Shown here in pieces: positions 1,201 through 36,090 of a stretch of DNA of 46,143 nucleotides. The notes beneath the pieces were generated by a model. The model worked only from the letters and a program-made list of their open reading frames with translations. It was not told the DNA's origin and made no database searches. Every line of letters starts with the position of its first letter. Position 1 is the first letter of the stretch. Position numbers and translations under genes: made by a program. This stretch comes from Psammoneis japonica (Eukaryota): positions 62,001 to 108,143 of the forward strand of contig QPGO01000225.1 in assembly GCA_008632985.1 (NCBI GenBank). The letters are read 5' to 3'.

Positions 1201-4200
1201 CACAAGTGACCAAGATCAAGGGAAGGCATCTTTCTTTGCACTGGCTTGGTTCATTTTGCTGCCACAGCAAGCAAGGCCCCGCTGGCTTGAGTGGAAGATT
1301 CTGGGTTCCCTCTTCTCAATTTTTCTGTGGATCCCCATCTTGCTCTGGCTGATTGTCACATCCATGAATGACACAAGAACAGTCTGATTCCATTGCTTCC
1401 CATCTTGCATGGTTTTAACTCTCATGATCATGGATCACGCATGTCCTCCACCCCCTGCACTTTTGCATCAACTGGCAATGACAACAATGTTGCCCCTGAT
1501 GAAGTGAGGATTGCCAATGAGCACAAGCACCCAGCTGAGGTGCAAGGTGGTTGAGGCAACATGGAACAAAACAACTCAGATGAACAAGAAGAAGAGTGCT
1601 TGATTGAGCAGCTTGTGTGGGAAGATTTGAGGAGCAACATCTTTGAAATGGTTAAAAAGGTGACCAAGAAACCATGCCATCCAACCAGTGAAGGAAATGT
1701 CCGCTGTTTTGCCAACCTCAAAGATTTTTTATTTTGTTGCCCGGGCAATCATGCTGGGCTTGCTTTTGCAATGTCTGGGAAAATGTGCATTGTGATGATT
1801 TGGCTGTCATTAAAATTGCCTTGACACATGTCTTGTTTGCAACCCAAGACCAAGAACCAACTCAAAAAATGCCACAGTGCCGTGCACTGCACACCATCAA
1901 TTCTTTGAACTTTTCTCATCTCATCCACTTGCAAGATTCTCAAGGACATCAACATGCACATTTGTGGGGAGTTTGCTGTCATTGTTCTGACACATGGACC
2001 AAGTGCTGTTGCTGCCACAGTGCACCAGGAGGAACAGAATGCTCAAGGAAATCCTGGAATCAATTTCCAGCACTCCTGATGACTGTTGAGCAAATTGAAA
2101 GCCATTTCAACAACAGTGGCAGACATGGCCATTTGCAGTGCTGTGCATGAATCAACACTGTCCAAAAATCAAAACATCCGTGAGCTTCGTGCCACATTGT
2201 CAACTCCGTGCAACATTGAGCCACAATCAATTTTTTTCATCTTTGTGCAACCACACAAAAACAGACCCTCATCTGCAATTTGACAAGCAGCTTTTCGTGG
2301 TCCAATCAAAAGCAGTGTGTGGATGTGGCACGGAAGAGCTGGCACTCACAAGTGCACAGACAAAGTGGTGTTGTCACATCAGCATGATGGTTGTGTTTGC
2401 ACAGCTGGCAGCTGACCTCTGTGATCTGTGACAGCTGCTGCCAGCAGTGCAGAGAGCTGCCACTCCAGCTGCTCCTGCAGCAGCAGCTGGAGTGGAGCTG
2501 CTCTCCACCAGCTGGTCATCTGCACAGATGGCACATTTGGGCAAAACATGCTGTCAATGTGATGCCCCAGTCCAAAATGCCACCACTCTTTTTCCAATGA
2601 TCCCCAGCTGTTTTTCCGTTGATGGAACTTTGTCAAACATTGCCGGGCATGTGGGCACATGAAACACACAAGGAAAAATCAATTTGCAGCATCGTTCCAA
2701 GGCTTCTGAATGCACAACAAACGTGTTCATCACAGTTGGGGGCCACAAATCAATTGCTGGCACACTTTTTTCATGTGAAAACATGCAGTTTTGTGTGCTG
2801 TCTTGTGGAATCGGTGCCAGAAATGCCACAACCAGAAACAGCACACATGCTGTCATGCCATCCATGTGGACAACCACTGGCCAGCTCTGCTGGAGCAGAG
2901 AGCACAGAGAGAGCTCTGACAGCAGCATCCACAGGAGCAGAGCTGCTTGCAGCAGCTGTGACATGTCACAAAGACTGCCAAGAAACCACCATCAACCACC
3001 ATCAATGACTCACACCAATCACAGATCAAGAAACAAATGAGATTGGAGGTCTGGGGTTCAAAGCAAGAATGGAGCCCCACTTCTGTTCTTGTTTCATGCA
3101 ACTTGTTCTTGATGAGTCTTTGCACCATTTTCATCTGTGTTGGGTCCAGCACAAATGCGGGTCACTTCTTGTTTCTTTGCAGCTCTTTTGTTGATTGTCA
3201 AGTGGAGTGGTTTTTGTTCTCACAATTTAGAGATTGGTCAATTCACACCTCTCAAGATGTCCATTTTGCCATTTCATTCTCTGTGGTGCAAACCCACAGA
3301 GCAGCAGCTGCAGCGCAGCTGGCTTTTGCCACCAAAGGCACAGATTTGTCCCAGCGTCAATGTTTTTGCAACACCAGCAAGACACACTTCACTGTGTTGC
3401 AACTTCATTGTTTCAGCCCCTTCATTTTTTCATTGCAACAAACAAAGAATGTTGAAGTGTGTCAGCAGGCACTTGTCCTCCACTCATGAAAGCTTTGCCG
3501 CACCTGTTCCCCCATGTGTCAGCTTGCTCTGTCAAGGGCACAAGGAAGGTTGGACTGTGTGCTGATGATGGCCACCAGACACTTTCCAGGTGGACTGCAC
3601 AGCAGTGCACAACCCTGGACCCAGCAGCAAGGCCACTTTCCTGTGTTTGTGGGCTGCTTGCAGTTGACAGCTGATTGCACAGAAGTGCACAGTGGAAAAC
3701 GTGACTTCCAGCATTGCAGGTGCTGCAGGTGCTGCAGGACAAGTCCTTGGGACCAACAAGTTGCAACATGACTGGCCATCATGTAAATGACTTGCTCTGT
3801 GTGAAGGTTCTGTGCAGGGTGCATGTGCTCAGTGCCAAATGTGACCACTGTCACACAGAGATTTAGTTTCCACATGTCCAGCCATTGCACCTGGTCTTGT
3901 GACATCTTCCATCACAACAAACTGTTGTGCTTCAAGCACTTGGGCCTGTCCCTGCACATGTCAAGAGATGAGATGATCTCTCTGACCAAGATCTTCTCTT
4001 GCTCTTTCTTGCTCCAGAGCACATGCATTGTCCACTGCAACCAGTTTGCAGGGGGAGCTCTTGGCTTGTCCTCACTCATGCCACAGGTGTGGCACTTTGA
4101 TGCAGTCAGCATTGAACCAGCTGAGGACTTGAGCACAGCAGAAAGATTTGTTTGGCTGTCCACACTCTGGACATTTGTGAAAGCCCATCCTTGCAAGTGT

Positions 4201-4429
4201 TCCTTTTTTTGAAAATGCTCTGCACACAAAGCATGCATGCTTTGTGCATCACCAAAGGTCATGCTTTGTGTGTGTTTACTTTTGCTCTCTGTTGAAGCAG
4301 GCATCCGCAGTGACACTGATTTTGCAGAAGCACCCAGTGGAAAATGTGTCTCCCAGCACCTGCATGAGAGGCTTGTTGCTGCAACAAAGACAAGAAGACC
4401 AAAACAAAGAAAAGCTTCAAGGAGGAAAT

Positions 4430-4740
4430 GAAGTTGTTCTGTCAGTCATTGATGAGCAGCAACTTGCACAATGCAACATTCAAAGATGCCAAGGAAAAGA
4501 TTGTCAGCCATGTGCAGAAAGAGCATGGTCAAGGCACATGTCTGGAAAGGTCTCCAGAAGACATGACACATGCAAGTTTTGTTGGTGAGAGACCTGCATT
4601 GGAGATGACAACAACAACAGCAAAAGCACCCAGTGGTGCAATTTGCCAGAGACAGGCAAATGAGAGAGTGCGTGAAAAGAAAGACAGCTTGAGTGTGAGC
4701 ACAAGATCAAGTTGCATGACTGCAATGAGAAAGTGAAGAA
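4430..4740 (+). pseudogene. possible LTR-retrotransposon gag remnant
   Basis: NATFKDAKEKIVSHVQKEHGQG..ERSPEDM resembles the N-terminal Gag region of diatom Copia-type elements as I recall them. No zinc knuckle seen. Confidence 0.3.
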
Positions 4741-4786
4741 GCTTTGTCAGAGAGGCAAGAAAGGGCACATCAGTCACAGGACATTG

Positions 4787-5260
4787 TTTGGCACTTTGAC
4801 CTGGTGAGCGTGCTTTTGCGTTGGCCCATCTCTGATTGAAATGCATGCTCCCTTGCAGCATTGGCAGCTGACCTTTCACATTTTTGTTCTGCAAGGACAC
4901 AACCATTGCTTTGCAACCAAATTGTTTTGTGCTTCAGATGTTTGCTCAAGTGCTTGTGCAACAACAGTCACAACAGCCCAGCACCAACTCACTCAATCAA
5001 ACATTTGCAGTTGCAGCACTTGGGCCATCATTTGGCACTTTGACCTGGCCAGTGTGCTTTTGCATGGCCCATCTCTGATTGAAATGCATGCTCATTTGCA
5101 GCATTGGAAGTTGACCTTTTGCGTTTGCATTTCACATTTTTGTTCTGCAAGGATGCAGCCATTGCCTTGCGACCAAATTGTTTTGTGCTTTGGATCCCAA
5201 TGCAAGTGCTTGTGCAATGACAGTCGCAACAGCCCAGCATCATTTCGCTCAATCAAACAT
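4787..5260. repeat. diverged tandem duplication, two copies of ~220-230 bp (4787-5004, 5031-5260)
   Basis: Both copies start tttggcactttgacctgg and end ctcaatcaaacat, and share gcccatctctgattgaaatgcatgctc and tttcacatttttgttctgcaagga. Confidence 0.9.
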
Positions 5261-6929
5261 GCGCAATTGCACTTTTGTGTTGCCACAGACACTTGCAATC
5301 AGCATTTTTTGAAGGTGTCAATGAAATTTTTGCACTCAATGTTCACACATTGGATGTTGACATGCTCAGTTGTCAGGGCAATGCCCAGAGCAAGGCAAGC
5401 ACAGATCCACTTGGTCTGTTGTGTGAAGCAACTTGCACTGCATTTTTTGGTCCTCACTGCAACACTTCTGTGCGAAATTTTCTGGCTGTCAACTTTTTCT
5501 GACTTTGGCAAAGTTCAAGCAATGTGGACAGAAGGTGCGTTCCCATGAACCCACTTGGTCAGCTGCACAAAGCAACTTCCATTGCAACATTTTGTCCTTG
5601 CTGCAAGACTTCTGTGTGAAAAATTTTTGCTTCATTTCAACTGATGTCATGGGGTGAGATTTTTGCATGCCCCGCAGGTGGCGTGGAGAAATCTCCCAAC
5701 CACCATGATGACTCCCTTTTGACTCTGCTCAAATTGTTCCATCATGACAGAAGTGTGCAAGCTTTTCCTGGCCCTTTTGGAGCAACTGGGAAAGTGAAAG
5801 AGGAGCCACCACAGAAAGACACAGATGACACCTTTTTGATGCACTGTTGTCAGGCAGAGGTGGTGCAGCCAGTCATGAGTCATGATGGAGTGCCCTGCTT
5901 TGTGTTTTTGTGTTGTGTCTGTGTGCAGGAATGCACACACTTGGATCTTGGACAGTTCCTGCATAAAAAGTGTGCCAGCTGATCTCTGGACTGCCCCTCT
6001 TGAGTGCTCACATGCAAGTGTGGACTTTTAAAAATGAAGCCACATGGGAAATGTCTCCAAAAACTGCTGAATTTTTGCAAAGCCATTGTTGTCAAATGTG
6101 TCTGCAGATGAAACATGAGCCAACATGTTTTGTGCTGTTTGAGGCCATGTGCACAAAAACAAAACTTGCTTGCATGATCATGGCAGTTGATTGGAAAGGT
6201 GGGCATTGTGCCATCTGTGCACAATGTGATTTGAGCGAGATCTGGTGCTGTTGCCACATCATCAGCAACAGTGTTTTGGTTGTCCTCTTGGGCAAAATGT
6301 TGCGGTCATCTGCAAGTTGGTGGTTGGCACTTGGTCTTGGCAGTGGCAGCCCAACTCAAGTGAAGCCATTTGTTTTTGCAGAGGGACATGCCAATGCCAT
6401 CATTTCACTGGGGATGCCTGGATCTGATCTGGGATGAAGGGATGCATGATCCTCTTAGCCAACGGTGAGCCCCCAGTGTCTCAGTGATGCTCATTCTTGC
6501 ACTGACATGGTTGCATGCCTCTGAGCATGGCTTTTGCCATTTGTCAGCAGCTGGGCTTGAAGAGATCACACACAATGCTGCTTTGGCCTCTTTGCCAAGC
6601 AGCCCATCACACAACAAGACAAAGGGAGCAAAATGGTGTCATTCCTCAAGTTGAGATGCTCGCACTTCTTCTCTCACTCTGTGAGTTGCTGGAGTTGCCT
6701 CTGGGCTTCCTGAGGTGTGACCAACAGTGGGATTGATGAGGTGCTTGTTGCGCACACAGGAGAGCTTGTGAGCCTTGTTTCTAACCAGGTTGCACAGGTC
6801 TTCATGCACTTTGTCATGTCATGAGATGACTGGACCACCCTTCTTGCACCAAAGGGTGTGGCAGCACTTGGGGAGATTGGGGGGAATGCTGCCATGCTGC
6901 AACATGCTGTGCACAGCTCCAATGATCTG

Positions 6930-7330
6930 GGTGCAGAGGGCTCTCTCTGTCCCTTCTCAATGACCACAAATGGCCAGAGCAGGTTGGGCTCAATGTTTGC
7001 CAACAACTTTGTCATGATCCAATCTTCACCATGCTTGGGTTCTGGCAGCAAAGTCCAAGTGAATGCATTTTGCACACAAGCACTCATCACATCACACTTT
7101 TCCATGGCACCAGTTGTGTGACAGCTGTCAGCATTCTTCCTTCCAACAGTGCCATGAGGCTGGCTTGCTTGTCTTTGGCTGGCCACTCCTCTGTTGGTTT
7201 GCCGCTGTGAGCCACTCCCCCTTTTGTGTGACCATTTGTTCTCTGCTGGAAACACCAGAACAGCAACCATGGCCTTGGTCCTTTCACTCAGAGCCACATC
7301 TTTGATGAATGCTGGTGCAAAATGCACTCA
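6930..7330 (-). mobile_element. Ty1/Copia (CoDi-type) reverse transcriptase fragment, degenerate
   Basis: GHTKGGVAHSGKPTEEW..DKQASLMALLEGRMLTAV (like KGRxVYNGKPTREW..ASPT..ESIxLTAV), then after a frameshift DVMSACVQNAFTWT.LP..KHGEDWIM (like DVMTxDVPNAFIQ..GEERIIM). Confidence 0.8.
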
Positions 7331-7369
7331 GTTGTGGAGCTGTCTGACTGACTTCTTTCTTTGAGGCTC

Positions 7370-8040
7370 CATGCAAGCTGCTTTGGTCTGCCACTTTTTT
7401 AAAGAATGTCTGAAGAGAGTCTGTGGTGCCAGATTTTTGAAAATGCAACCAGCTTCTTTGTGAGCAGTCTCAAGTCCTGTGCACAAAAATTGCTTCACTT
7501 TGAGGAAAGAGCTGCCGCCATCACACACCCAAGCTTGATGACGTGGAAGTTGCTTGGGCAGTGACCAGCTTTGAAGCCAAGGAAAAGAACAAAAAGCAGC
7601 AAGTGACAGCACACTGCAAAAGGCACCTTGAGCACGAGGGAGTGCACGCAAAAGCAACCAGCTTCTTGTGCCCCCAAAATTGCCCAGGGAGGGTGGCTGG
7701 ACCTCCTTGGGTGGCAGAGCATCTTGATCCATTCACCCTCATGTGACATGTGACGTCATCAGCCAATGACCAACAACGTCCCTTTCAACTTGACGCAATG
7801 GCGGAGACAAAAAAAACTGCTCAAGACTTTGAAAGAATTGCCATCATGCAATGACCAAGCTGTGCACTGCGTTGGTTTGTTGCCATTCAAAAAATGTCTG
7901 AAGAAAGTCTCTGCATGTCGAAAGGCTCGTGGCACCCAATTTATGAAAGCACAACTGACTTCTTCATGAGCAGACTCAAATCGTGCATGCAAAAATTGCT
8001 TGAGTTCAAAAGAACTGCCTTCATCACATGCCAAGACCAC
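7370..8040. repeat. diverged direct repeat, ~7370-7550 and ~7855-8040
   Basis: Shared blocks aatgtctgaaga.agtct, cttct...tgagcag.ctcaa, caaaaattgctt and ccatcaca/tcatcaca. Confidence 0.7.
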
Positions 8041-9438
8041 GAGCTGTGTCAGTCTTCCATCTTTTAAAACAATGCCCAAAGAAAGTCTCTGCACATCGAA
8101 GTGCTCATGGCGTCGGATGTTTGAAGACACTCCCATGGAGCGTTGCACTTTTCAGTCTGGCCAGTTGGTTTTTCCATGCAATTTCTGCATGGCACGTAAA
8201 ATTCTACGTGGCCTTGGCACTTGCACAAAGCTCCTCACGATGTGTCGCTCCCCGCTGATGCTTGCCATGGCACCGATGCATTGTCATTTGTTGCACAGTG
8301 CTGAACAGGATTTGGTCAACTTCCACGCAACGGGGTTCACACAAAAGCGACAAATCACAGGAGCAAAATGCAACTGCCAAGGGAGAGAATCTTTAAGTGT
8401 CAAAACTGAGCTGACTTTGCAGAAGCAGCGGCCATCAAATTTGCTGCATGCAGATCCCCACCTTTCCATCTTCATTGAGCATGACAATGGAACAGGCCAC
8501 TGGGCACATTTCGCCATTCTTGTTGAAATGACATGATTCTGCAATCATGCGATCGCCCAAGGCTCCCAGACAATTGTTTTCAAAAGGCTGGGAATCCAAA
8601 ATGAAGCAGACAAGACAAATGGCTGAGCATTCTTGGAGAGCCAACAAGAATGGATGGCCCAAGCACCAATCAGAAATCAGACGCTTCTTGGAAAAGCTTC
8701 CAGAAGGCACTTGCCAAAAGCAGACACAAGCACAAATGAAATTTGTCAAAAAGCATGTTGCACCTCCCTTCCAACAACCAGCTCCACACTGAGAAGAACC
8801 TTTTGTGTGCTGCCTTTAAAGAACTTGGTGCAAGAACATCCTGCAGGCAACAATTTGGTCGGTCTGGCATCCCTTTGAACGGAGATGCACATGCTGTTGA
8901 AACCTTTGGCAGGACGTGGGAAAAGAATGTGAAGGAGCATCTCATCCATCAATCCAGAACAAGCCCAAGTCTCTGCATGCTTGGGTTGGTCAAGTGTTGT
9001 TTCCAGGCATCCCAAATCCAGGTGCAACAAAGAGGAGTGTGTTGCATCAACTTGAAAGACTTCAACTTCACTCCTCTGTCCAATGTTGTTGACATGTCGA
9101 AAGACAAGGCAAAACAAGGGGCAAGAGCTGACACCACAAGAGCAAAAGACGTCAAAGGAATGACGAGCCACAAAACAAAGAACACCTCCCAAGCCGGGAG
9201 TGGTTTGAAGACACAACCAGCTTCTGCATGAGCAGCCATCGAACCCCGAGTCACGACTCCTCGTGAATGAATTTTGATCCTTTCGACTCGACTCTCCTCA
9301 ATTGGTTGAGTCACGACTCGTGAATGATTGATGACCCATTCGACTCGACGCAATGGTGGATTCAAAAACTGCTCAAGACTTTGAAAGAACTGCCATCATG
9401 CAATGACCAAGCTGTGCCCTGTGTCGGTTTGTCGCCAT
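7784..9438. repeat. ~100-bp dispersed direct repeat, 7784-7886 and 9339-9438
   Basis: aaaaactgctcaagactttgaaagaa.tgccatcatgcaatgaccaagctgtgc occurs in both. The left copy has ttcaacttgac where the right has ttcgactcgac. Confidence 0.85.
9248..9350. repeat. two tandem ~60-bp units containing the hairpin motif GAGTC-AC-GACTC
   Basis: gagtcacgactc at 9248 and 9308, each followed by cgtgaatga and later ttcgactcgac. Confidence 0.8.
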
Positions 9439-9439
9439 A

Positions 9440-12290
9440 GTCTCTGACATATTGTGTTGATTCGTTGTATTGTGGATGACATAGACTTAGTATGTGTCGG
9501 ATTTCATTGACGACTGGACGAGCATTCTCAAAGCCCTCCTCCGACAATCTACCATGCCGGTGCATCCGCCACCGTTCTAAAAAGCTGTACACGTGAGCTT
9601 CAAGATGATGAAACTTCAGGAACACACTTACCCAAGATCTCGGTCTGTTGGTTTCTTTTGGGATTTCAGAATCTTTTTGATGCTGCAAGCAAAGGCCGCG
9701 CAACTTTTTCAGAGCTCTCCATCACCTGGCTCTGTTGAAGCATCATGTAAGTTTTGATGCTGGTCATACCATGCATGGCACTGCGCCACATTCTCACAAA
9801 TGGTGTCTCACTTTTCTGAGCTGTCATTCCGTCTGCGTGGCTCAACTCGTAACCGCTGTGCTCAGCGCGAAACCTCACCTGCACCAAAACCTCAAAGCTC
9901 TTGTTGTGTACAAACTCACCTCTCCCTTTTGGCTTCATGCTATTCTTGGAGCAATGTGATTGCACAGATGAGACAAATCGAGTAAGTCCCTCCTGCAACC
10001 TATGCTCCTGTCCCAAGTTCGTCATCACGGTAGCATGATGGCATGCTGCAATTCTTCTCGGAGTCCATGTACATTGTTTCTTCATCTTGGTTCCCACTTG
10101 CCATTTCCCTCTCAAAATCCTTTTCTAATTTCCTTTGGGACTTAACATACTGACTTGAATTCCGTCTCGCCTTGAGCCATCCTGGACACTTCTCCTGATG
10201 CGATTCTCTGCCGCGGCATGTTCACGTTCGACCTCAGCGCTCCACGCTGAATTCTTTTCAATGAAACAAATGCGCTTCCTGATTTCATCAGCAAAATGAG
10301 TGAAAACGCCTTGTGGTGTGTGCATGGCTGTCATCGTTTCCTTGTGAGGTGGCACTCTCAAAAGCGGAGCCTTGTGAACGCTTCCGCATTCAAGTCTGTC
10401 TTCTTTGTTGGATGACGGTACGTTGCCGTTGTGGGTGCGTTCGGCCCACTTTTGGTAAAGCAAGTGATTGGCAAAGTCTCCTTCACGTACAGGGGCTGGT
10501 GTGCATTCGACTGTCACTATCTTATTTTCGACATCCATTTCTTGTATCCATTTGGGGGCGTGGCTTGTAAAGTAAATGTGATCTTCCGCGCAAATCAGTT
10601 ACATTGATTGGATGCAGTACCTTGGCCAGAAACTATCAACGACTGCTTTGTATCGTTGCTCGGAAACCCAACTTTTTGCTGGAATGTCACATTGATGTTT
10701 GCGTTGTCCCCAACTACGAGTTTACCTTCTTCGAATTCATGGCGACACACAATTGGCCCGGTGGCACCGACGGAAAGTCTGAAGCCGTCACAGTCACTAG
10801 AAGTTTCACTGAACTTTACAAACGTGGCAATGAGCTCAATCTTGCTCCCTGTGGCAGTCGTGTAGCTTGACAGATCCAACGTGTCAGGCTGTTCTTCATT
10901 TCTTCTTCCTCTGCCGGCAGAGCGGCATTTGAAAAGGAGGCGTCGACTGCAATGCTGTCAAACGTCAATGAACATTCACCGTCACTGGAAGAGGCGATAA
11001 ACTTGATGGAAGCGCATTTGCAACAGCTGCATCCATTGCCGGCGTCGAATGTGATGATGTGGAGGGCATCGTCCACCAGATCTTGCAAGAATGCTGTCAT
11101 TGGAAACATCACAATACTGTAGGCAGAGGCTCGACGGCTGAACTCGCATTCCGCTGCACACTCGTACTGGCACTGGGGCTGGCAATTTGTCCCTTTATTT
11201 CCGTCTCTGTGATTCGCTATTCGAATCAAAAGGGTGAATGCATCACCTCCTTTGTCACCGCCGAATACTACGACGAGTTCGTTCGTTTCGGAACTGAAGG
11301 ATTCGGATTCCTCGAATTTGCCAGCAACGTGGCATACCTCGGTGAGCTTCTCCAAAACCCGTCGCGGTTGCTTTATCCACCAAAAGCCCTTAAAGCTTTT
11401 TTTGTTTCCATTCTTGTCTATGATCACGGGTTTTAGAGTTGCTCCATGCGCCAAACTCCCTTCTGATTCACATCGTGAGATTATCTTCTTCAGCTGGGTA
11501 GAGAATATTCGAATGTTGAGATGAGCCTGGATAAACCTACTGTCCAGCCGCAGCACTCCGTTTAGACTCATCTTAACGTAGTCCCTAAGCGCTGTGACCT
11601 TTGACTCATCGAGCACGAGATCTTGTGTGCTACATAGAGCATAATCGAAACTGCTTGCAACCAGTTTCAAAAGGGCATGGTCCTCATCGCTGCTCTCTTC
11701 AAGCAATTCAATTACTTGGTTGACTGTCTTTGTTTTCGCTGCAGGTTTTCGTGGTTTTGGCAGCACTGCGTAAAGTCTCTTAGTTTTGCGATTTGCCTTG
11801 TCTAGGACGGTCAACTTCGTGATTGCATTTCCTGTCTTATCGGACAATGATTGCAGAACTGGATGGGCAAGTGCCTGCAGTTCTACAAATGGCAGAAAAT
11901 CCTTCTCAGTGCACACTGTCGCAAGCAACTGTGTTACCATGCCAGCTGCAGGAGAGGAGGGGAAACCCATTTGATCCTTGTTGCAAGCAACGACAAGATT
12001 GCAAGTGCACAATTTGATGAAGTTGGGGTGAAATTGTTCTCATCCCTGAGTTCCAGCATGGTGATGAAGAACGCACCAGAACAATCACCAAGTCTGAGCA
12101 TTGGGAATCTTGCAAGAAGCTTGTTCAAGCAACAATTTCAAATTCTTAGTGAGCACCAAGTCAAATGCCTTCTTGGAGATGTCGAGCTGCTCCAGAAGTG
12201 TGACAGCCTTGGGGAAGCGATTTTTTTGTTTCTTGTTGAGCTTGGGGAGGCCACCACAGTTTCCCAGGTTAAAACTCCCTGCCCTTGATT
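9440..12290 (-). mobile_element. RAG1/Transib/Chapaev-like DDE transposase pseudogene (frameshifted)
   Basis: Consecutive minus-strand ORFs 10816-12012, 10595-10879, 10125-10538, 9666-10115 and 9362-9703 give, in order, VVVFGGDKGG (D1), SNDTK (D2), MHTPQG (like LHxxLG) and KFHHLEAHV..F..RW...GRLSEEGFE (like KxHxL..H...G..SEExxE, catalytic E). Confidence 0.7.
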
Positions 12291-12740
12291 CTTTTCATGT
12301 GAGCAATGAAAGGCTCCAACCAAGCCTCTGTCTCTGTGCCAAAACAAGCCACAAAAAATGTGTTGGTCAGCTGCAGAAAGATTTTCAAAACAGGGTTCCA
12401 AAAAAGTGTCAGTGGCAGCCACAATGTTCTTGCTTCCAACACTTGGTCAAGGCTTCCCATGTGAGCCAACATGTGTCAAGGTTCCTGTGCAGGGCCATCA
12501 CACTGAGTGTTCTCACACCTTTGCCCAACATCTTGCCATGGCTTTCACTCATCAGTCAATGCAATTGCAGTGTGTTTTGCTCACAGATTTTGCACTCTCC
12601 CTCCAATCATCTTCAAGTGACACAAAACAATTTTGGTCACATGATTCAATGCCAATGCCATCACCTCACACAGAACTTGAACTGTGGTGTGCTAAAAAGA
12701 TGTGTTTTTGGCAAAAAAGAAAAGCATTCTGTTGCCTGTG

Positions 12741-13207
12741 GTTGTTGACATCATTGATGGTCAAGGGGCAGGGGGGGACACCAACTCTCAAGAGAGACCT
12801 TGCACAGGAACAGCATGATTTGCCACAGTGATTCTGATGACAATGAAGCTGCAAGATTGTTCTTGATGCTCAGTGCGTTGCAAGTCCTGCTGCCGAAACA
12901 CATGGCAAAAGGCAGATTCTGAGTCTGACAAGTCAATGGCAGAGAAAGTGTCGTTGTTGACAAATGCAGCCACATTTGCAAGCAGCACTGTTGTTTCCAT
13001 GGATGCAACAAGTGACAACACTCCTGACAGCATGAGACAGCATGTTTGCCAAAGCCCAAGGAAGACAAGGGGAAGATCCATTTGGGCTGTAGCCTGTTTG
13101 ACATTCTTAAGAGCCAACACAAGTGTGGTGCTGTTCTTGGTCTGTTGGATCAAAATAAAACCAGCTTTGTGGTGCTTTCATCATCTGCCAAAGGAATGGG
13201 AGGACTC
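12741..13207 (+). pseudogene. hypermutated duplicate of the 5' region and first ~120 codons of the TBC1D23-like gene at 39541
   Basis: Colinear with 39417-39900. ADSESDKSMAEKVSLLTNAATFASSTVVSMDATSDNTPD here matches ADSESNKSTAEKESLSTNVATSASSAAASTDAISNDTPD there. Start codon lost, frameshifts present. Confidence 0.9.
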
Positions 13208-13219
13208 AACGCCACCAAT

Positions 13220-14770
13220 CTCTTGCTGCTGCTGTTGCTGCTGCTGTTGCTTGCTTCTGTGTGCAAGATGCTGTTCTTTCACTCTGCTTTGTCAGGAAGT
13301 GAACAAGCAGACAGCCAAAGGAAGGTGGGTGCTTCTTGGTCCACAAACCCCATCATGCACAGCTGCTCAGCTTCCTTTGTTTGTCTTGCAGGAGCTCCAG
13401 CTTTGGCCACTCTGCACAAAGTGCCACATGCTGGCCAGAGCAAAAAAGCTGCTTGTGGTGAGTTCTTGAGGTTTTCCAGCAGCCCTCCTCTTGGGTGTCA
13501 TGAGGCCTTCTTGAAGCCAGCACAGAGAAGCTGTTTGTGAGTTGAGGTGGCTGTTGAGCTTGTGACAGCACACTCTTTTTCATTGCTTGTTCCCCAGTGC
13601 TGCTCATGTTTGCTGCCACCATTGCTGCTGCCAGCACAGCCTGCAGCACCAGATGTCACTCTCTTCCTTTCAGCATTGTCAGGAAATGAGCAAGCAGGTC
13701 ACCAAAGGAAGGTGAGTGCTTTTCATCTTCTAAACCCACAGTGTGCAGCTGCTCAGTTTCTTGCATGGCTTGAGCTGCAGGAGCTCAAGCTTCAGCCAAA
13801 AGCTGCTTGTGGTGGGCTGAGGTGTTGAGCTTCTGACTGTCCATTCTTTTTCATTGCTTGTTCCCCACTCCTTTTTGTGTTTGCTGTCACAGCTGCTGTT
13901 GCAGCCTGTGCAAGATGTTGTTCTTTCTGCCCTTGTTGTCAGGGAATGAACAAGTCTTGGAAACCAGGTGACTGTCAAAGATGTGACAAGGTGCAGCAAG
14001 ATGTTGTTGTTTGTCCTTTCTGCATTGTCAGGAAACAAGCAAGCAGCTCACCATGTGCTGCACCCTGACAGACATCTGTGGAAAAGGCAAGCACATGCTT
14101 GGCTGCACAGCTGCTCAGCTGCTTGTGTTTTTGCAGCATCAGCTTTTGGTTTTTTCATGATGAACAGAGGCAAAAAACAATTCACAGGCAAGGAGGCCCA
14201 ACCCAACAGCTCCACATTTGACAACCTGCTTGCTTCTGTCAGCAGGATCAAAAACTGTGGGAGGCAAGCAAGCCTGCATGCAAGAGGGGTGCTTGTCATT
14301 TCAGCCACCCTGCACAACACCCACATGATGGCCAGCACAGCTTCCACTGGACTGTTGTTTCCCAGTGCTGCTCATGTTTTTGCTTTTTGCCATTGCTGTT
14401 GCAGCCTGTGCAACATGTTGTTCTTCTTTTCCATGTCATGATCAGGGAATGAACAAGCAGAGCAGAGCACCAAAGCAAGGTGGGTGCTCTTTGGGCTTTT
14501 AAGACCCACCAGCATGTGTGGCTGACAAGCTTCTTGTGCTTGTGTTGCAGGACAAGCTCCAGCTTCAGCGACCTGGCAGAAAACACCAGGTGCTGGCATC
14601 ACAGAAGCTGTTTCTTGCATGCAAAGATGATGAGTTTGTGACAGCCCATTCTTTTTTGTTGCTTGTTTCTCAACGCTGCTCATGTTTTGCCATTGCTGCT
14701 GCAGCCTGTGTAAGATGTTGTTCTTCCTTTCCATGCTGTGTGAGAGAGTGAACAGGCAGGTTGCCAAAGG
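13220..14770. repeat. degenerate satellite-like array of ~5-6 related units (~100-390 bp spacing)
   Basis: Recurrent core gctgctg(tt)gcagcctgtgcaagatgttgttct...ttgtcagg(a/g)a.tgaacaagcag...ccaaag near 13240, 13620, 13890, 14000, 14390 and 14690. A related copy lies near 19860-19940. Confidence 0.7.
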
Positions 14771-16399
14771 AATGTGGGGTGCTCACATTTGGAAAATGTC
14801 GCGGCTCTTGTTCAAAACTCACATTCTCTTGTTCAGGGTTCTGTTTTCTTAACAAGTTCCAAGTGATTGTCAACAAAGGGAACTTGGCAATTGTTTGAAC
14901 ATTCCAAGTGGGATTTAACAGCTGATGCAAATCAGTCTTGTTGTGCACACATCCTTGACAATTCTTTGTGTCTGCTCATTTCAAACCTTCCAAGCAGGAA
15001 ATGACACTCAATGAAATGCGTCACTTGCATCTGTTTCCATCTCAACAACCATGTGTTCGCAACAACATTCTGACATTGTCCACTTCTGACAACCATGATG
15101 TTCAATTGTCCTCCATGCTGCTTGTTGTCTGATGTGCAATTGTTCTGTTTTGTTGTTTCCACACTGCATGCTGCAAAATGCTCCCTTTTTCCTGTTCTTT
15201 TTTTCCTGTGTTCCACCAGTTCCTGTTGTCTTTCACAGTCCCCACACCATGGGTGTGATGTTTTCAGCCCTTGTGGCCTCCCTTGCAACCACTCTTGCTC
15301 TCTCCACAATCATCCACACCAGCAATGACATTGTCCTCCAATGGTCAATCTTGCATTCCTTCTGTTTGGCTGGCCAAAGCATCGCCTGCAAAACTGGAGA
15401 AAAAACTTTGTCTCAATGATCAATTTTTGTGCATGTTTGTGTTTCTTACAATTTTGTTTCATGCACTGCTTCTGCTCACCTTTGTGCCCTTCCCCATTGC
15501 CCATCTTCCATTGCAGCTCAGGACATGTGTCTGGACATCTGTGCACAAAGATGTGCACAAGTGTCAGTCATTTGCTTGTGGGCCCATCTCCATGCATTCG
15601 CCACTTGTTTCCTCTTTCTCACCTTGTGTCCTGCATTTTGTTCCATCCCATTCACAACTCCGCTGCCTGTCACCACTGCTCTCATGCATTGCATGTGACT
15701 TGAGATTGCATTTTTGTGTCTTGTGGGGGGAGTGACAATTCGTGTTTTTGGCCAAAATGCAAGCCTTGCTGTCAGTTGATTCCCACCGGCATCTCTTTTT
15801 CAGCAACAATTTTGTTTTAAAATTCAATCTTTTTGTTGCAATGTGATGGTTCAAATGATTTGAAACAACCTCAATGAATCATTTAGTCATCAATGTCACA
15901 CGCATGCATTCAACAAGTTTGATTTTATCACGTTGATGTGTTCTTGTTAAGATTGGAATTTTCACACTCGTGCCTGCACACTCCCATCTCCAGGACTTCA
16001 ATCAACACCTTTTTTCCAATGACAAAACAAGTGACATCCTCTGGGTTGTCAGGAAAGGGGTCTTGTGGCAACCCAATCAATGGAAGAACAAAGGCAGCAG
16101 ACAACAGACAATGTGTCAGAAATTTCAACAACTCTGATTTCTGACTCTGTTTCAGTGCTGAAGAAAAAGGTCAGCAGCAAATCTTTGGATGGCACAAAGC
16201 TCCAAAGTGATTGGATTGCACAAATTGTGGATTTGCCCTCCTTTGTTTTATTTTCCAAGGTTGCCCAACAACACATGAGTTGCAACAGAAATGGCTCATT
16301 TTGTTCTTGTCCCAGTTCACCATGGACCAGCTGTGCCAACTCCTTTGTTCCCATGGGCAGGAGTGAAAGTGAGGGTGGCATCTTAGAATGTCATGTTTG

Positions 16400-19280
16400 T
16401 CATTGACAGGGCCCAGAGCATTGCATCCAAAACAAATGAAAATTCACAATGTCAACTGGGAAACCTTTGCAATGTTCCGCATGATCCAGCAAGGAGGTGA
16501 CCCACTCCTTGCTGCAATGGCCAGGAACAAAAGGACATGACAGTGTCTCCAGCTGTTTGTTGCCACATTTTACAGACCATGTGGCATTGTTGTGATCCAT
16601 GCTTGTAACCCAAGCAGTCACCAACACAGATTCACATGGTTTGAATCCACTTGCAGGGTCAGTGCATGCACAATTTGATGGTGGAGAGTCAGGACGAGCC
16701 TCTTCCTCTTGTGCATGCAGCCAACCCACCTCCAGCAAATGCTTCTCTGATCATTTCCCAACCACAAGGTCCTCACAGTGGCAATTCATCACATCCAGGT
16801 TGAGCCCATCTTGCCAATGACTTGTGTTTTTAGTGAGTTGCTTCAAAAAAGCATCTTGAGGAGAGCTTCACAGAATCCACCAAAAAAGTGTTGACATTGC
16901 CCCGCTGACGAACATAAAAAAGGAAGTGAAGAAGGACATGGAACTTGGGTGTGCAAAGTCTGGAACAAGAGTGGCACTCTCTGAATGGGCTGACTGCAAA
17001 TCAAAACAATTGGAGATGCTTGAGGATGCATTTCTGAAGCCAAGTGAGAAGAAAGCTTTCCTTGTTGGAGGACATGGACAGTGCTGCATCCAATCCCAAA
17101 GACATGAACATCAGGTGGGAAAGTTGACTCTCCAGTGGCTTGAGGCTTTCATCTTCCTTCGAAAGCATGCCTTTCATTGCACAAGTGTTGCAAGCAACAA
17201 ACCTGGATGCTCTTGGCCAGAAAGATGAGTCTGGTTGGTGACTCCATTCTTGAATGGAGCTCTTGGCACCTTCCAATTGCTTTGCCTCCTGGGTGCATGT
17301 GTGGCAACTCTGAAGCATCTCTCAAACTCAGCTTTGTCAAACAGCTCAGGGAGCTCCTTGAATGTGATGGATGGTCAGTTGTCCATTGTGCATTCCCAGC
17401 AACATGACATTTGCAACACCATGACAACATGTTTTCTGGGACTTGATGCAGGTTGAAGAAGGCATGAAGCAGATGCTTGCAAAGACCAAAGTGCAAGGCA
17501 TGCAACAGGTTCCAGGGGAGCATGACAAAAATGCTGTGCTTTCCTCCACCATGAGAGATGTCCCAAAACATGGGATGAGTGAAGTGCTGAGAAATGTCCT
17601 TGCACTGTTCACAAGCAGCAGCTGCCTTGCCATGATGCCTTTCCTCCTCCATGGCTGTCATGGCAGCCTCCACTGTCTCCTCAATGTTCTCTTGTTCCGC
17701 CAAAATGCAGCCAAACAAGGGATTGTCACCAAAATGCTGTGGTGTGTCACAGTCCCTGTTCATCCAGGAGATGTTGCTTGAATGGGGTTGTGGTGACAAG
17801 CCATGTTGTTGTGACCTTTTTCATGGCTGATTGTTGTGCACGATCAAAAGTGGAGATGAACAAAGCTGAGAGATGGCACCACAATTGGGAAACCAGTCTT
17901 TTGCTTTGACAGTTGAAGCAACTCTGTGAACATCTTGTGCAAAGTGCTGTGGCGGAACTTGATGCATGTCGCCTGTCTGAGCTTTGACTGAAAGTTGGCA
18001 GTGCACTCATTGCTTGTCTTTGGGTGTGGCAGCACCATTCCTGGTGTTGACCAAAGGGAGTGGCTGCAATGACACTCATCATTAAAATTGCCCAATGTCA
18101 CAAGAATGGGTTGTGACTGCAAATGACCCATGTTTTCACAAAGGAGGGTGGAATTGTCAAACAGCACAACTGGGCAAACAAAGTGTGATCCAGTCATTGC
18201 CAAGTTGACCAAGGGAAGATTTGAGAGATCATGCTCCACTTGCTTCCACCAGTTCCAGTGTCAAGAGAGTCACAAATGTGCTTGTTTAGTTTGGGGCAGC
18301 ACTTCTCATTGCACAACCACTGACAAGACTGGACAACCTGGGGATTGCAGAAAACCCTTCTCACACAGTGCAGAAAGGAAAATCAGTGCACATGCATTGG
18401 GGGGAAATCTTGGGGTCCACATGCACTGTGGAGCAAATGTGCTCTGGGCCACCAAAACCAAAATGCTCAGCTTTCAAGAGAGACTTGCACTCACAGCCAC
18501 TCTCCTTGGCATGTTTGGCCCAAAAACAAAAAGCCTTGTACAAACCAGGGGAGAGAAAATGCTTCTTGCACAAACCATGGGAGAGACAATGCTTCTTCAT
18601 CATCACAACCAGCTCTTCCTCCACTGAATGAAGCTTCTTGGTGCTGCTGCTGTTGGTCACACAAATGCATGGAGGTTGCAACAGCTGAGCTTCTTCCATC
18701 TAAGTGTGTCAAAGCAGTGCAGTCCATCATCATCCTTGTCATCATTGGGGAGGGAAGAGGATGACACAGAGTGTTGTGCTGAGAGAACGTCAAACTCCTT
18801 CTCCAGGAAAAAGACATCATCACAGAAGATGCCATCATCAGAAGGGTCTGGGGCAAGAGACCCAACACTGAGTTCTTCTGGCAGTGGTGCATGATGAGAA
18901 TCAACAACATTGTTGTTAAAGGAAAAATCCAATGGCAGTTCATTGGAGAAGGGATCAACATGGGTGGACAATTGAAACTCTTGATCACTGCCATTCTGAA
19001 AAGGCAGGATGGATCACCACCCCAACCAAGAGACAGGGACAAGAATCATTTGGCACTTGAATCAAGGGGAACGGTTGAGAGGCACTGATGCATCAAAAGA
19101 GATGGAGGCACCGTTGTCACACAAAAGTGGTTGGGAGAGGAAGACACATTGTTGAGGCCACAACAAAAGAAAAAAGAGCACTGGGGATGTCTTTGGAAAT
19201 GTTGGTGGAGAGCATGCTGGTCATTGTTGTCAGACATCTGACTGGGACAGAGTGGATTGTGACAGGGGTGCGCCATTGTC
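16400..19280 (-). mobile_element. Plavaka/CACTA-like DNA transposase relic
   Basis: N-terminal CHNPLC...LHQHFQRHPQC zinc finger (~19270), then CPVVLFDNST...LQSQPILVTLGNF, FWDISHGGG..SIF..LPWNLLHALHFGL and RRQSNWKVPRAPFKNGVTNQTHLSGQEHPG (~17200-17295). These match motifs I associate with diatom Plavaka-like transposases. Confidence 0.7.
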
Positions 19281-21919
19281 ATTGGCAGATTTTGGGTTGG
19301 CAGAAAGAGAAGGGATGAAATGCATGCAAACTTAACAAGTTTAATGATGCACACACAAAAAGCAAAACTGGCAACTTAAAACAAGTGAAAACAATTGAAT
19401 CATTTGCAACTTGACAGCCATCAAGAAGAACAGTCAATGTCCGTGTGTGATGAAGATTGACAGAAACAATGGGCAGACATTTAGGAACTTCAATTGTTGA
19501 CAAGCATCGCTCTGGTTCAGCACAGAAACATGTCACAGATGACTCTTTAGTGGGGGAGCAGGCAAGCAGGTCATGACTTGCCAAACTCTGGCTTTCACCT
19601 TCCTGCTTTTGTCAGCAAGAGCCAAAATTGTGGCAGACAAGCAGGCTTGCATGCAAGAGGAGTGCTTGTCAAGAGTCTCAAGCATTGCATTTGCAAGTGT
19701 GGCTCATGTCACAGAGCTTCAAGGAACCTCCCAAATGGCCAAAGTGACAGCAGGCACTCCACATGCAATGAAGGCAATCACTGAGAACCTGTCAAAACCT
19801 GCTTGACTGTGAGTGCAAAATGTGCCACAAAGCATCAAACACACCCAAGTGACAGCTGGTTGTGTGACAAGGCAATGCAAAATGTTGTTTGTCCTTTCCA
19901 TGTTGTCAGGAAATGGACAGGCAGCTTGCCATGTGCCCCCCATCATCACATGCTGGCACAGCTTTCCAGCACATCTTCTTGCCTGTTTTGGTTGTGAGGC
20001 CAAGACCAAGAACATTTCAAGCCCTTCTTTGAGTGACTGGAAATGATTGAGGATTTTTTGAATGACAAAACCAAATGTCACAACATCCTCCTCTCTGGCA
20101 AGCATGCTGGCAGAGATGCATGGTCTCAAATCTGAGCACTGCAGTGTCATTGATGGAAACCCCATTCTGACAACCCAACAATGTTGGCTCACAACTTGCC
20201 AACTGCACTTTGCCAAATTGCAAGCCTGCATCTTTTGTGCTTCTCAAGATCAGCAACTGTTGCCACACAACTTGCATGAAATTCTGCTTGCTGAGTGCAT
20301 GTCAACTTGGCACCAGATTGCATTTTCCCACATGAGATTTGCTTCTCATCACACCAGTTTTGAACATTCTCCAGACTTGGGCTGAAACTTTTGCCCTGGG
20401 AAATGTCAAATGATTCAAGCACGCAGGTTCAACTCTGATGTGCAGAATTTCATCACTGCAGGGTGATTCCAGCCTGCAAAATTTTGTTTGCAACAATGAT
20501 TTGCAACAATGACAAGCCTTTGTGTCCTCTCATGTGTCATCTGGGCTGACACCTGTTGCTCCCTGTTTTGCTGAAGTTGAGCTGTGCCACTCTGTGTCAT
20601 GCAGGGTTTGATGACCCTGTCATTCAACAAATCTGCTGCAAGTCAATGTGGAGATGACATGCGTGGTGCTGATTTGATGCTGCACACAGCATTGCCACCA
20701 GCGCTGTGTGCCACCAGGATTTACAAGTTTGCCTTGTAAATCCTTGGCGCCACATCAGCTCAGTGTGCCTTGCTGTCCCTCAGAGACAATCAGTCAAGTT
20801 GGTTTGTGTCTGTGCACAGCTGTTCTGTCAAACACACAAAAAGCAAAAAAAGTTCATTGCACCTCAAAGAACTGTGCCACCTTTGTCATTCTCCAACATT
20901 GTGGATCATCTGATGGGAGCTCTGTCAGGTGTTTGCTTGGGGTCTCTCTCTCTCTCTGAAATGAACAAACAGATTTGGTGCCACTGATTCTCTGCATCAA
21001 ATGTGACCAACAAGGATGAAAGAAGCTGAGGTGGGAGCTGCTGGTTTGGACATTTGTCCATCTGTTTGACAAATGGCAGGTGCAATTTGTTGGGCCACCT
21101 CCAAAGTGTCAATGACCCCTTGCCTCCTCTCTGCCAGAGCTGCACTGCATGCATGACACAAACTGCTTTTACATTCGCACCTGTGACACACTGTCAAATG
21201 CAACAAGCCTGAAGCTGTTGGCCCTCCCAAGCCGGGGCACCCATGTCTTTGAAGTCACGCTGCTTCACAAATGACGATGGCACACGTGACACATGATGAA
21301 GGGCAGATGTCCTCACAAAAAATTGTGTCATCACGTCATCCTCTGTCTGCCTGCTGCTGGCTCTCTGGTTGATTGGCTGCTTGTGGTTGTGATTGCAGCA
21401 ATGGACAATGGCTGCATTTTGCAGTGGTGCCCATCAATCACATCACCGCTTTGCCTGCCCATCATGATTCTTAACCTGCCCTTGCATTTGTCAGGAGCCT
21501 TCTTCTGACAAGCTCGTCCAAGTCTTTGAGAGATGTTTCCATGTTTCGTTGGGCTTCTTGAGAGCCCCAAATGTGCAACAATGTCATCAAAAGTGTGCAA
21601 AGAGCCACAGTTCCAACTGTGTCAAAGGAGCTCACACAACCAATGTTGCCAGAGAATGGCAGGCAATTGCAAAAGTTGATGGACGGATGGATGAGTCAGT
21701 GGCAAGAGGAAGCTGTTGTTTTGTTCTTGGAAAAACACATCCCAACAAATTCCTCGCTGAATGTCATGTGACACACAATGCCAGTTTTTGATTGTTTGCA
21801 CCACTGGTGGTAAAAATTGAACCTTTCTCTGTTGACTTCTGGAGTTCAGCAGGAGGATGATCCTGCTCATTTTTCCAATGATTGTGGCTGCGCCAGCCAG
21901 CATCGTGAGTCCTCTCACC

Positions 21920-22855
21920 ACTGTCACTGTTCTTGGAGCAGCTGTGGCCTCAACTCTTTTGGACAGTCAAGTGAAGCACCCACTGGCAGATTGACCCATG
22001 ATTGACATGGGCGTTGTCATTGTGATGCTGGCAGGAACACTGTCGGACACCATGCTTCATCAAATCACAAGCAACAAAGTTTTGCTGGTCTTGCTTGTGG
22101 CACTTTGAGCTTCTGTGTTGTGTTGAACTCTTAAAAAAGGCAAAAAAATTACAGTGCCAAAGGCAAGTGCATTGCTCAACTCAAAAAAATGATGGGAATG
22201 TTTTGGCAGAAGCATCTGGGGATCAATGGACAGACCACATGGCTGTCACATTGGCTTGTCAGGCAATGCATGCATTTGAAGGTTTTGCAGCCAAACTGGG
22301 AGGACAGAAGAATGACAAGCAAATGAACAACAGTCAAGATGCAAGAAAGGCCACACTGTTGACTGAAATGATGGAAGAATGAAATTTTGCTCCAAGGTGC
22401 AAAATTGTGGCTGTCTGTGGCATTTTTGCCATGGCTGTCTTTTTCAATGCAACATCAGTTGGCGGAGCTTTCCCCAATCCCCTGGGGTGTTTCATGTGGC
22501 AGCACACTGTTTTGGATGGTGCATGTGGTCATGGTTTCAACTTTGCAAACACTGTTGGGTGCCATGACTCATCAAATCATGAGCAACAAAGTTTTGCAGG
22601 TCTTGCTTGTGGCACTTTTAGCTTCTGTGTCACATCAAATGCTGCTGCTTCTGCTGCAATGCATGCAATCTTTTGATTGATTCATTGGGGCTGTGCTTTG
22701 GTTTGCACAGTGATTGGGTTTGCGGCTTCACTCCTTCAGAAGAAAAGAGTTAAAAGGGACAAGATCAATGGGATTGAGCTCAAAAGAGTGTTGTTCATTG
22801 CATTTGCTGTTGGCAGTGTCGTGCTTCTGTTGGGGATTCTGTTGTGCATCAAATG
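21920..22855 (+). pseudogene. TauE/SafE (TSUP) sulfite-exporter family pseudogene with an internal ~90-bp duplication
   Basis: VTVLGAAVASTLLDSQVKHPLAD*PMID (like NVTxLGGxxAN...KRHPxADRPLID), then hydrophobic segments KVLLVLLVAL and CALVCTVIGFAAS...FIAFAVGSVVLL. 22040-22120 is repeated at 22545-22630. Confidence 0.7.
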
Positions 22856-23375
22856 AATTTTTGTGATTGGGAACATTGCAGAAGATGACGTTGGAGGGCT
22901 CTGTTGTGATTCTTGACTGTGATCAGCAATGGATCAGAAAGGCAAAGATTTGCTCCAAGGCTCACTTGGCACAACTTGAGGTGAAGGTGGTGTCACCATT
23001 GTGGAACATTGTTCTGTGGATGTGCCGCAGAACACAAAAAATCAGAGTTCACGGAGCGCAGGCCTGGAGGCCAGTTGCCTCTGCCGTTGCTCTTGATGCT
23101 GCAGACGAATTTGCACAACACTCTAGCAACACTGCTTGCTCATGGCTCATGCAGCAAATGCAACATTTTGAAAAGGCATCAGCAGTCTTGGACTGCTCCT
23201 TGCTTGGCATCATCATTGATGCATGTCTCCTGAATGACGATGACGAAGCTGAGTGCATCATGGCAGGATGTGGCTCCAGCCGGAAGAAGGGAGCAGTGGC
23301 CCAGAACAGCAAGAATGATGGGTCATCCGTTGACAACCCAAAAGGCAGGAACAGGAGAGAAAATCCACTCATGGC

Positions 23376-23376
23376 N
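23376..23376. other. single N, probable scaffold/contig join
   Basis: atggcNtctg; the sequences on either side appear unrelated. Confidence 0.7.
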
Positions 23377-23833
23377 TCTGTTCGGTCCGATTTGCAAAAG
23401 GGAGAGAAGAAACGCAATTGTGGATGCGTTGGAAGGAAGGGAAAGAAGAAATGAAATTTGGGGCACAACAGAGGCAAAGTGCGGCAAAAGAAGAGGAAGA
23501 AGAATCAACAGAAGAATGCCAGGTGGACTTCACACGTGGGAGTTGGGACACATGTCATCGAAAATCTGCAGACTGCAGCACTTTTTGACTGGCGACCTTT
23601 GCAAAGTGCGTTCGAAGGTCTCATGTGCAGCACTCCTCCTGCAGCAGAATGAGCTCTGTCGAAGTGGCACTGGGTGTGTCATTGTAGATGTCAGCTCCAA
23701 AGTTGATACATTCATTATGGATACATCCAACATCAGTCTCCGTGTCTGATTGCTTTCACCTCTTCCACAGCCAGCTAGAGCCCCGCCGGCAGTCGTACCG
23801 GTACGAGTAACCCGACATGGCAATCGTCCAGCT

Positions 23834-33052: not shown

Positions 33053-33053
33053 N

Positions 33054-35697: not shown

Positions 35698-36090
35698 TAG
35701 AGAGGCGGCAGCGTTGCCGTTGGAGCCATTCGGTGTTGTGAGTCTTCTTTCAGGTGACAACAACATGAAATGGTTGCCTGCATTTTGCACGATGGTGGAG
35801 TGCTTGGGAAGATCCATGCCAACAGGAACACTCATTTCAAGCTGCAATCAGTCAGAGCGATTCTCAAGATGAGCAAGTTGCGTGTGGTTGCAAGTGGGGT
35901 GGATTCAAGAGTGGTTTCCATCAAGAAACAGCTTCACAAAAAGTGGATCTTGGCTCATGCACAAAGACCACATGTGCATGATGTCACCTCTCAAGTGCTG
36001 GGCTTGGCCATCTTGACAACGGGCAGCCTTGAAGGTGCAGCAGTCACAAAACAGACCCGCAATCTGGGGCTGGTGCACCCGCAATTCTGA
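35697..36090 (+). pseudogene. WD40 fragment resembling UTP4/Cirhin, degenerate
   Basis: RVVASGVDSRVV....KWILAHAQRPHVHDV (like UTP4 VFxxGVD...W......RxHTHDV). Stops and deletions present. Confidence 0.5.

Follow-up and report, generated by a model that had tools for sequence, protein, structure and literature searches.

The 46-kb window described here (46,143 nucleotides of contig QPGO01000225.1, Psammoneis japonica) consists of two sharply different kinds of DNA. Gene islands carry 41-50 TA and 47-58 CG per kb, and tracts carry 2-4 TA and 5-8 CG per kb. The islands lie at 9251-12000, at about 23690-24150, at 25501-35750 and from 39391 to the end. The tracts total 25,453 bp, about 55% of the window, and hold 75 TA, 221 CG, 2931 CA and 2881 TG; their borders with the islands are sharp at 250-bp resolution. 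The last island contains an intact gene whose first open reading frame (ORF) begins at 39541. A decayed partial copy of the 5' end of this gene begins at 12741, inside one of the tracts. Thus the same 0.5 kb is present once in a protected gene island and once in a tract, and gives a clean internal control for what has happened to the tracts. The features are listed in Table 1.

Table 1. Position, strand and supporting evidence of the tracts, the gene pair and the mobile elements of the window
Feature	Position	Strand	Evidence
TpA/CpG-free tract with border zone 7751-9250 (TpA gone, CpG about half gone)	1..9250		dinucleotide counts
Island 1: partly TpA-depleted gene island, candidate DNA transposon	9251..12000	-	composition, run comparison
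TpA/CpG-free tract holding the copy; deep part has 3.7 TA and 5.4 CG per kb	12001..23680		dinucleotide counts
Pseudogene fragment: decayed, incomplete copy of the 39541 gene's 5' end	12741..13236	+	alignments, translation
Short TpA/CpG-free tract	24251..25500		dinucleotide counts
DDE_1 transposon (pogo/Tc5-like), unmutated, flanked by two identical direct repeats of 164 bp	33054..35696	-	Pfam, composition
TpA/CpG-free tract that stops about 150 bp short of the intact gene's ATG; contains a reverse-transcriptase relic	35861..39390		dinucleotide counts
Source of the copy: 5' leader (about 130 bp) of the intact gene and its first ~129 codons	39410..39927	+	alignments
First ORF of the intact gene, 277 aa, with an acidic N-terminus and without known family	39541..40374	+	ORF translation

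In the tracts, the observed/expected ratio (O/E) is 0.04 for TA and 0.15 for CG, while CA and TG reach 1.82 and 1.84 and AA rises to 1.24. The losses of TA and of CG both end in CA or TG, so that the G+C content stays where it was; it is nearly equal in tracts (0.477) and islands (0.474). When the changes TA>CA/TG and CG>TG/CA were simulated on island DNA until every TA and CG had gone, O/E came to 1.93 for CA and 1.98 for TG (observed 1.82 and 1.84), and every other dinucleotide fell within about 0.13 of its tract value. These two changes alone suffice for the composition of the tracts. The tracts are strand-symmetric overall; tests zone by zone report local deviations only.

The gene and its copy can be aligned over almost the whole copied segment. 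A local alignment of 39457-39927 with 12754-13236 has 456 columns, with 350 identities and 106 mismatches (77 of them transitions), and MAFFT alignment of 39410-39930 with 12735-13240 gives 479 aligned columns, of which 351 are identical. In the alignment, the copied segment is collinear with its source and has no recognisable intron. The intact segment 39410-39927 contains 15 TA and 41 CG; the copy contains 3 and 4. The copy is a pseudogene. It has lost the ATG, gaps of 1, 2, 5 and 8 bases break its frame, and its translation contains stops and is readable in the middle part alone. Judged by its sequence, the copy is dead and covers only part of the gene, its promoter-proximal leader and the first ~129 codons. 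Directly downstream there is a degenerate tandem array (13220..14790, plus strand), also free of TpA and CpG, with 4-5 copies of a unit of about 270-390 bp which are 62-96% alike. Every unit repeats short motifs found at the 3' end of the copy, and the gene fragment may be where the array originated. A Pfam search with the 277-aa ORF gave no match. The ORFs downstream of the intact gene (40119-40973, 41087-42064 and 42177-42866) match no Pfam family at E up to 1; they may resemble a TBC/rhodanese protein.

None of the 11 TpA of the intact gene covered by the local alignment is kept in the copy (5 became CA, 5 TG and 1 GA), and under MAFFT the result is 0 of 12 (6 TG, 5 CA, 1 GA). Only one CpG in 32 is kept (14 TG, 13 CA, 2 GG, 1 TA, 1 CT), or one in 37 under MAFFT. 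Other dinucleotides are unchanged in 252 of 398 cases, and in 212 of the 310 that do not touch TA or CG; compared with other dinucleotides, the excess loss is significant for both TA (Fisher's test, p=2e-5) and CG (p=4e-12). The initial annotation of this DNA had counted ten lost TpA between the motif caagagagac and position 39900 (5 to CA, 4 to TG, 1 to GA), and the MAFFT alignment reproduces this count exactly. It had also put the loss of CpG at about 30, nearly all to TG or CA; in the local alignment 27 of 32 became TG or CA. Its description of the other positions as largely conserved was somewhat generous, since background divergence is about 17% and the identity of the pair outside TA and CG is 79-88%. 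CA>TA is not among the frequent fates. Five of 30 TG sites show a double difference to CA, which suggests that an ancestral CG or TA changed independently in the two lineages.

Neighbouring bases have a strong influence on which sites changed. A>G differences in the pair amount to 5/12 after T, 4/36 after A, 3/30 after C and 6/47 after G (13/113 for A, C and G pooled). A signature of the DNA polymerase eta type, in which A changes after either A or T as in somatic hypermutation, had been put forward as a possibility; the comparison of AA with TA is negative, AA is enriched in the tracts, and this candidate is rejected. C>T differences are found at 15/34 sites before G and at 8/74 before A, C or T, and are not raised after T (6/31). 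With 14 CG changed to TG, 13 changed to CA and other C>T at background, the CpG losses follow the pattern of decay by 5-methylcytosine deamination. The same figures bear on the idea that selection or biased gene conversion removed TA and CG from the tracts. The change from TA to CA or TG does go from weak to strong, which is the direction of GC-biased gene conversion. However, the change from CG to CA or TG goes in the opposite direction, G+C is equal in tracts and islands, and other weak-to-strong changes, such as A>G after A, stay at background. Selection acting site by site over 25 kb is implausible in a pseudogene, a reverse-transcriptase relic and repeat debris. An explanation of this kind is considered extremely improbable.

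The initial annotation had proposed a strand-symmetric process at the level of DNA, and the balance of products upholds this: 5 CA to 5 TG at TA sites, 13 CA to 14 TG at CG sites, and nearly equal numbers of CA and TG over all the tracts. Together with the equally depleted flanks of the copy, this strand balance argues for a process acting in place on double-stranded DNA and not for editing of an RNA intermediate. If the copy were a retrocopy, edited as RNA by an ADAR-type enzyme before it integrated, its left end (39410) could be placed at a transcription start, as the protected island begins no more than about 20 bp away; reverse transcription would then have reached the 5' end of the mRNA. 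Balanced CA and TG products do not fit such a history, CpG loss is not an ADAR product, and the non-homologous flanks of the copy are equally depleted over 11.7 kb. No intron loss was seen, nor any poly(A) or flanking target-site duplication around the copy, although decay could have erased such marks. Editing of a retrocopy is scarcely credible as the source of the pattern.

Parsimony and the pseudogene status of the copy suggest that TA and CG are ancestral and that CA and TG are derived. The copy is the decayed member of the pair because its ATG is missing and it has gaps of lengths not divisible by three. Each member also shares the composition of its non-homologous surroundings, the copy that of its 11.7-kb tract and the gene that of its island. 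What matters for the change is therefore where the DNA lies, not what the fragment has gone through. Change in the opposite direction would require about half of the CA and TG in the gene lineage to have become TA or CG, with other sites staying about 83% identical, and we know of no process that turns CA and TG into TA or CG in that way. The lost ATG, the frame-breaking gaps and a composition that matches its own tract all support the earlier proposal that the copy can be used as a before-and-after control.

Loss of TpA and loss of CpG can be separated. At the tract edges there are border zones (7751-9250, 23001-23680 and 38501-39390) which have 1.5-4 TA per kb, yet keep 20-29 CG per kb, about half the island level. 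Island 1 (9251-12000) has 25.8 TA per kb, about half the value of the other islands, and a near-normal 46.9 CG per kb. As the border zones and island 1 are poor in TA but retain much more of their CG, TpA is lost ahead of CpG, and by a separable process. TpA erasure reaches further or proceeds faster than CpG decay.

Contigs from the public sequencing run X1 (k-mer depth ~113) were placed on 9000-28999, where 40 of 424 differences from the window are listed; X1 may be the sample behind the assembly, so its support is not fully independent. These contigs reproduce the tracts: records 2-8, of 661-1709 bp, have 3-18 differences and 0-2 gaps, and one contig that spans 11646-13349, including the copy, has 10 differences and no gaps. 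At one site in the copy where the gene still has a CG, the window shows one of its two possible products and the run contig the other. Contigs of run X2 are found in only 12 of 30 bins, mostly in islands, and no contigs of run X3 were placed on the window. Of the listed differences, 25 fall in island 1 (9519-11936). At 20 of these the window has CA or TG and the run has TA (13 TpG, 7 CpA); one is the reverse, with TA in the window, one is at a CpG and three are of other kinds, so that 21 of the 25 set TA against CA or TG. Both versions occur at some sites (64.5/112 at 10973), and elsewhere only TA is present, at full depth (104.8/104.8 at 10210). A TpA-directed event on island 1 thus appears to be recent and the process appears to be still active. 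The same differences, almost all one-way and with TA at full depth in the run, are what might be seen if modified bases at TpA and CpG had been miscalled as CA and TG in a long-read consensus. An artefact of sequencing or assembly is nevertheless very improbable, because the run contigs reproduce the TA- and CG-free tracts including the copy, and because the pair also differs by indels and at 17% of other sites, which shows the copy to be genuinely old.

The bases on either side of TpA strongly affect its survival. Survival is given here as the frequency of TA in tracts relative to islands, for each tetramer together with its reverse complement. It is 0.67 for TTAA, 0.235 for CTAA/TTAG, 0.12 for GTAA/TTAC, 0.054 for ATAA/TTAT, 0.027 for CTAC/GTAG, 0.019 for CTAG and 0.009 for GTAC. 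Three further classes are absent from the tracts: ATAC/GTAT (0 in tracts vs 136 in islands), ATAG/CTAT (0 vs 99) and ATAT (0 vs 65). A T before TA or an A after it is protective, and TTAA is nearly immune. If the 74 surviving TA were fresh sites formed from CA or TG, 39 would be expected to have no flanking T or A, 30 to have one and 5 to be TTAA; the observed numbers are 5, 42 and 27 (chi2=127, p=3e-28). The survivors do not look like fresh TA, and the process therefore reads at least four bases. The size of the flank effect is about 70-fold for TA and about 4-fold for CG. Relative to simulation, O/E is 0.96-1.15 for TTGB and 0.79-0.84 for TCAB, but these figures on strand choice at TTAB sites were set aside because products of CpG change and the composition of the source confound them.

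Genes in the window are split into exons. The sulfate-permease (SulP) exon at 31250-32236 (minus strand) has named homologues only in diatoms, at 50-59% identity, and its best unnamed matches reach 64%. The relatives of a sialate-esterase-like gene are just 47-49% identical and are all from marine protists. These matches make a diatom or a near relative the probable source of the DNA. Pfam was run on 27 stop-to-stop ORFs, and convincing families were found only for the SulP exon and for an RVT_1 relic (36843-37484, minus strand, E=3.9e-12) that lies within a tract; 21 of the 25 ORFs without a convincing family also come from tracts. DNA without TA has no TAA or TAG stops, and in the tracts, consequently, reading frames often stay open for 150-250 codons on either strand. 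Such frames in 1-9250, 12001-23680 and 35861-39390 are false ORFs.

Mobile and repeated elements are also present in the islands. Island 1 encodes a 407-aa ORF (10816-12039, minus strand) whose nearest Atlas clusters are DUF1280 and RAG1 RNase-H-like. It has no PDB match, and one 33%-identical homologue has a sub-threshold match to DUF1280; a transposase is a lead only. The DDE_1 transposon has an O/E of 0.60 for TA and 0.98 for CG, with a 308-aa ORF upstream, and can be taken as a control for young DNA which the process has yet to reach. The 164-bp repeats on either side of it (32889-33052 and 35697-35860) are 100% identical and tract-like in composition, and a single N follows the first at 33053; a heterozygous insertion or a join made in scaffolding may account for this layout. 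Tandem repeats of 69 bp (87-92% identical) are found at 26836-27195, within a 573-aa ORF (25771-27492) of no known family. Run contigs over the island containing these repeats have several times the tract depth, which suggests multi-copy sequence. The smallest island, 460 bp at 23690-24150, has normal composition (69 TA and 43 CG per kb) and sharp edges amid TA- and CG-free DNA, and no tRNA gene, Rfam family or long ORF accounts for it.

A comparable signature has been described in Bigelowiella natans, and searches of the literature on diatom TpA, dinucleotide bias, hypermutation, RIP-like processes and CpG depletion found it reported in that preprint only. According to its available text, the mutation rate of two integrated viral regions in mutation-accumulation lines is about 1000 times that of the remaining genome; of the 231 mutations in these regions, 230 are transitions of A to G or of T to C, every one of them at TpA, and the effect is confined to some lines (10.64898/2026.01.13.699255). 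The same text gives a Rho_TpA of 0.45 for the virus region and 124 clusters genome-wide that are low in TpA, high in CpA+TpG, and enriched for reverse-transcriptase and DDE domains (10.64898/2026.01.13.699255). Mettrop et al. propose an ADAT2-like adenine deaminase, and note the preference of adenine deaminases for a 5' U or T (10.64898/2026.01.13.699255). As far as this text allows comparison, the two cases share transitions at TpA only, to TpG or CpA (10 of 11 aligned TpA in the present pair), a regional limit and an episodic or recent look. They also differ in several respects. B. natans is a chlorarachniophyte, whereas the named homologues of the SulP exon are diatoms. The process is saturated here (TA O/E 0.04 over about 55% of the window), compared with the Rho_TpA of 0.45 given there, and it has affected general gene-free DNA and a fragment of a host gene, not only viral inserts as in the preprint's text. 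Among possible targets of foreign origin in the window, there is one RVT_1 relic in a tract, island 1 is a candidate for a transposon, and the young DDE element is unaffected. CpG is depleted together with TpA here, while a search listing for the preprint returns no occurrence of the term CpG. The flank rule is a further difference: the terms flank, trinucleotide and TTAA do not occur in the main text of the preprint, whose supplements and figures may hold motif data.

It could be asked whether a single enzyme or process removes both TpA and CpG, for instance a dual A/C deaminase or a reader of self-complementary pyrimidine-purine steps. Both losses occur in the same tracts, are strand-symmetric and end in CA or TG, and the preprint text cites ADAT2 enzymes as being said to deaminate both A and C in DNA (10.64898/2026.01.13.699255). 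On the other hand, border zones without TA keep about half of their CG, and island 1 is poor in TA with CG near normal. The listed differences in island 1 are at TpA in 21 cases and at CpG in one, the flank effects differ in size as given above, and C>T is not raised after T, contrary to what a deaminase preferring a 5' T would produce. A single process is thus quite improbable.

Taken as a whole, the pattern is best explained, with good confidence, by a dead duplicate lying in a silent tract and hit by two context-specific transition processes. The duplicate would have landed in a silent, gene-free tract or have been absorbed by one later, and its source gene would keep its TA and CG by staying in a protected island. 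Both processes are saturated in the copy and its tract. The change of CpG to TpG or CpA most likely takes place through deamination of 5-methylcytosine. The change of TpA to TpG or CpA would be a separate process, faster than CpG decay and dependent on a context of at least four bases. It may consist of deamination of adenine to hypoxanthine within 5'-TA-3' on either strand, by a putative deaminase directed to silent chromatin, and the silent chromatin state would thus provide the targeting. Provided that the process is real, adenine deamination is preferred tentatively as its chemistry, at slightly less than even confidence. A thymine route would leave CpG decay as a separate process and have a TET/JBP-type oxidase make 5-hydroxymethyluracil or 5-formyluracil at TpA, leading to T>C. 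As TA is its own reverse complement, T>C on one strand looks the same as A>G on the other, and the window does not separate these two chemistries. Formyluracil mispairs with G, and hydroxymethyluracil is enriched at TpA in dinoflagellates. The only proposal published for the signature, as far as the available text of the preprint goes, is adenine deamination, and the thymine route is judged unlikely. The remaining likelihood belongs to something not yet considered.

Several points weigh against the two-process explanation. The 277-aa ORF has no phmmer match among 1.84 billion representative proteins from which an outgroup orthologue might have been taken, and a metagenome scan for relatives of the gene gave 451 pattern matches with none confirmed. 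Transition-tolerant local alignment of all tracts with all islands, on both strands, produced one usable pair (score 501.5). With a background divergence of about 17%, this pair alone sets only a lower bound on the rate excess. The unmutated DDE_1 element beside a tract means that transposon identity alone is insufficient to attract the process, or that the insertion is too young. For the differences in island 1, allelic variants, paralogues, subclones and errors of the consensus at modified bases are all conceivable sources, though each of them would still imply that something directed at TpA happened recently on this island. A second pair, 9138-9438 with 7585-7886 (score 169), was left out of the counts, as it has no TA and its good alignment is limited to about 110 bp.

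The two processes invoked here can be compared with other known systems of sequence decay. Diatom transposons are CpG-methylated. Decay of methylated CpG as in vertebrates is likewise symmetric between TG and CA (14:13 here) and leaves sharply bounded protected islands around genes. The present case differs in that whole islands the size of transcription units are protected, not promoters only, and in that TpA has been removed even more completely than CpG; methylation would be the likely basis of the CpG loss. Fungal repeat-induced point mutation (RIP) similarly uses context-specific transitions to decay duplicated and mobile DNA in a defence-like manner, and leaves it unrecognisable to ordinary similarity searches. 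However, RIP changes CpA to TpA, which raises TpA and A+T, and it hits both duplicates; here TpA is destroyed, G+C is unchanged and the source gene is untouched. RIP is rejected on these grounds. Deaminase defences (ADAR, APOBEC/AID and ADAT2/TadA-type enzymes) share clustered transitions with a neighbour preference. They act on RNA or single-stranded DNA, usually in strand-coordinated runs, whereas the strands are balanced here and the target is apparently resident chromosomal DNA.

TpA hypermutation as such is already known from the preprint. What is new is its occurrence in a second lineage, its saturation, the flank rule, the fact that it precedes CpG decay and the indications that it is still active. 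The signature is now found in a second and distant algal lineage, where it is complete in over half of the locus. Three constraints are placed on the mechanism: TTAA is nearly immune, the kinetics are independent of those of CpG decay, and one island is apparently mutating now. The mechanism can be tested in an organism that can be cultured. There are practical consequences as well. Gene callers are misled by false ORFs in TA-free DNA, and decayed transposons escape ordinary similarity searches, so that transition-tolerant alignment is needed.

A broader proposal, which may hold but is advanced tentatively, is that diatom-like algae possess a chromatin-directed editor with a four-base context, which edits TA that lacks both a preceding T and a following A, spares TTAA, rewrites all silent TpA ahead of and independently of methylation-driven CpG decay, and is still active on a transposon-like gene island. 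A natural TA-specific editor of double-stranded DNA would be of interest to base-editing research. If the proposal is true, there is a natural editor that acts on double-stranded chromosomal DNA, and TpA hypermutation would be a widespread genome defence of the SAR group (stramenopiles, alveolates and rhizarians), not a peculiarity of viral inserts in a chlorarachniophyte.

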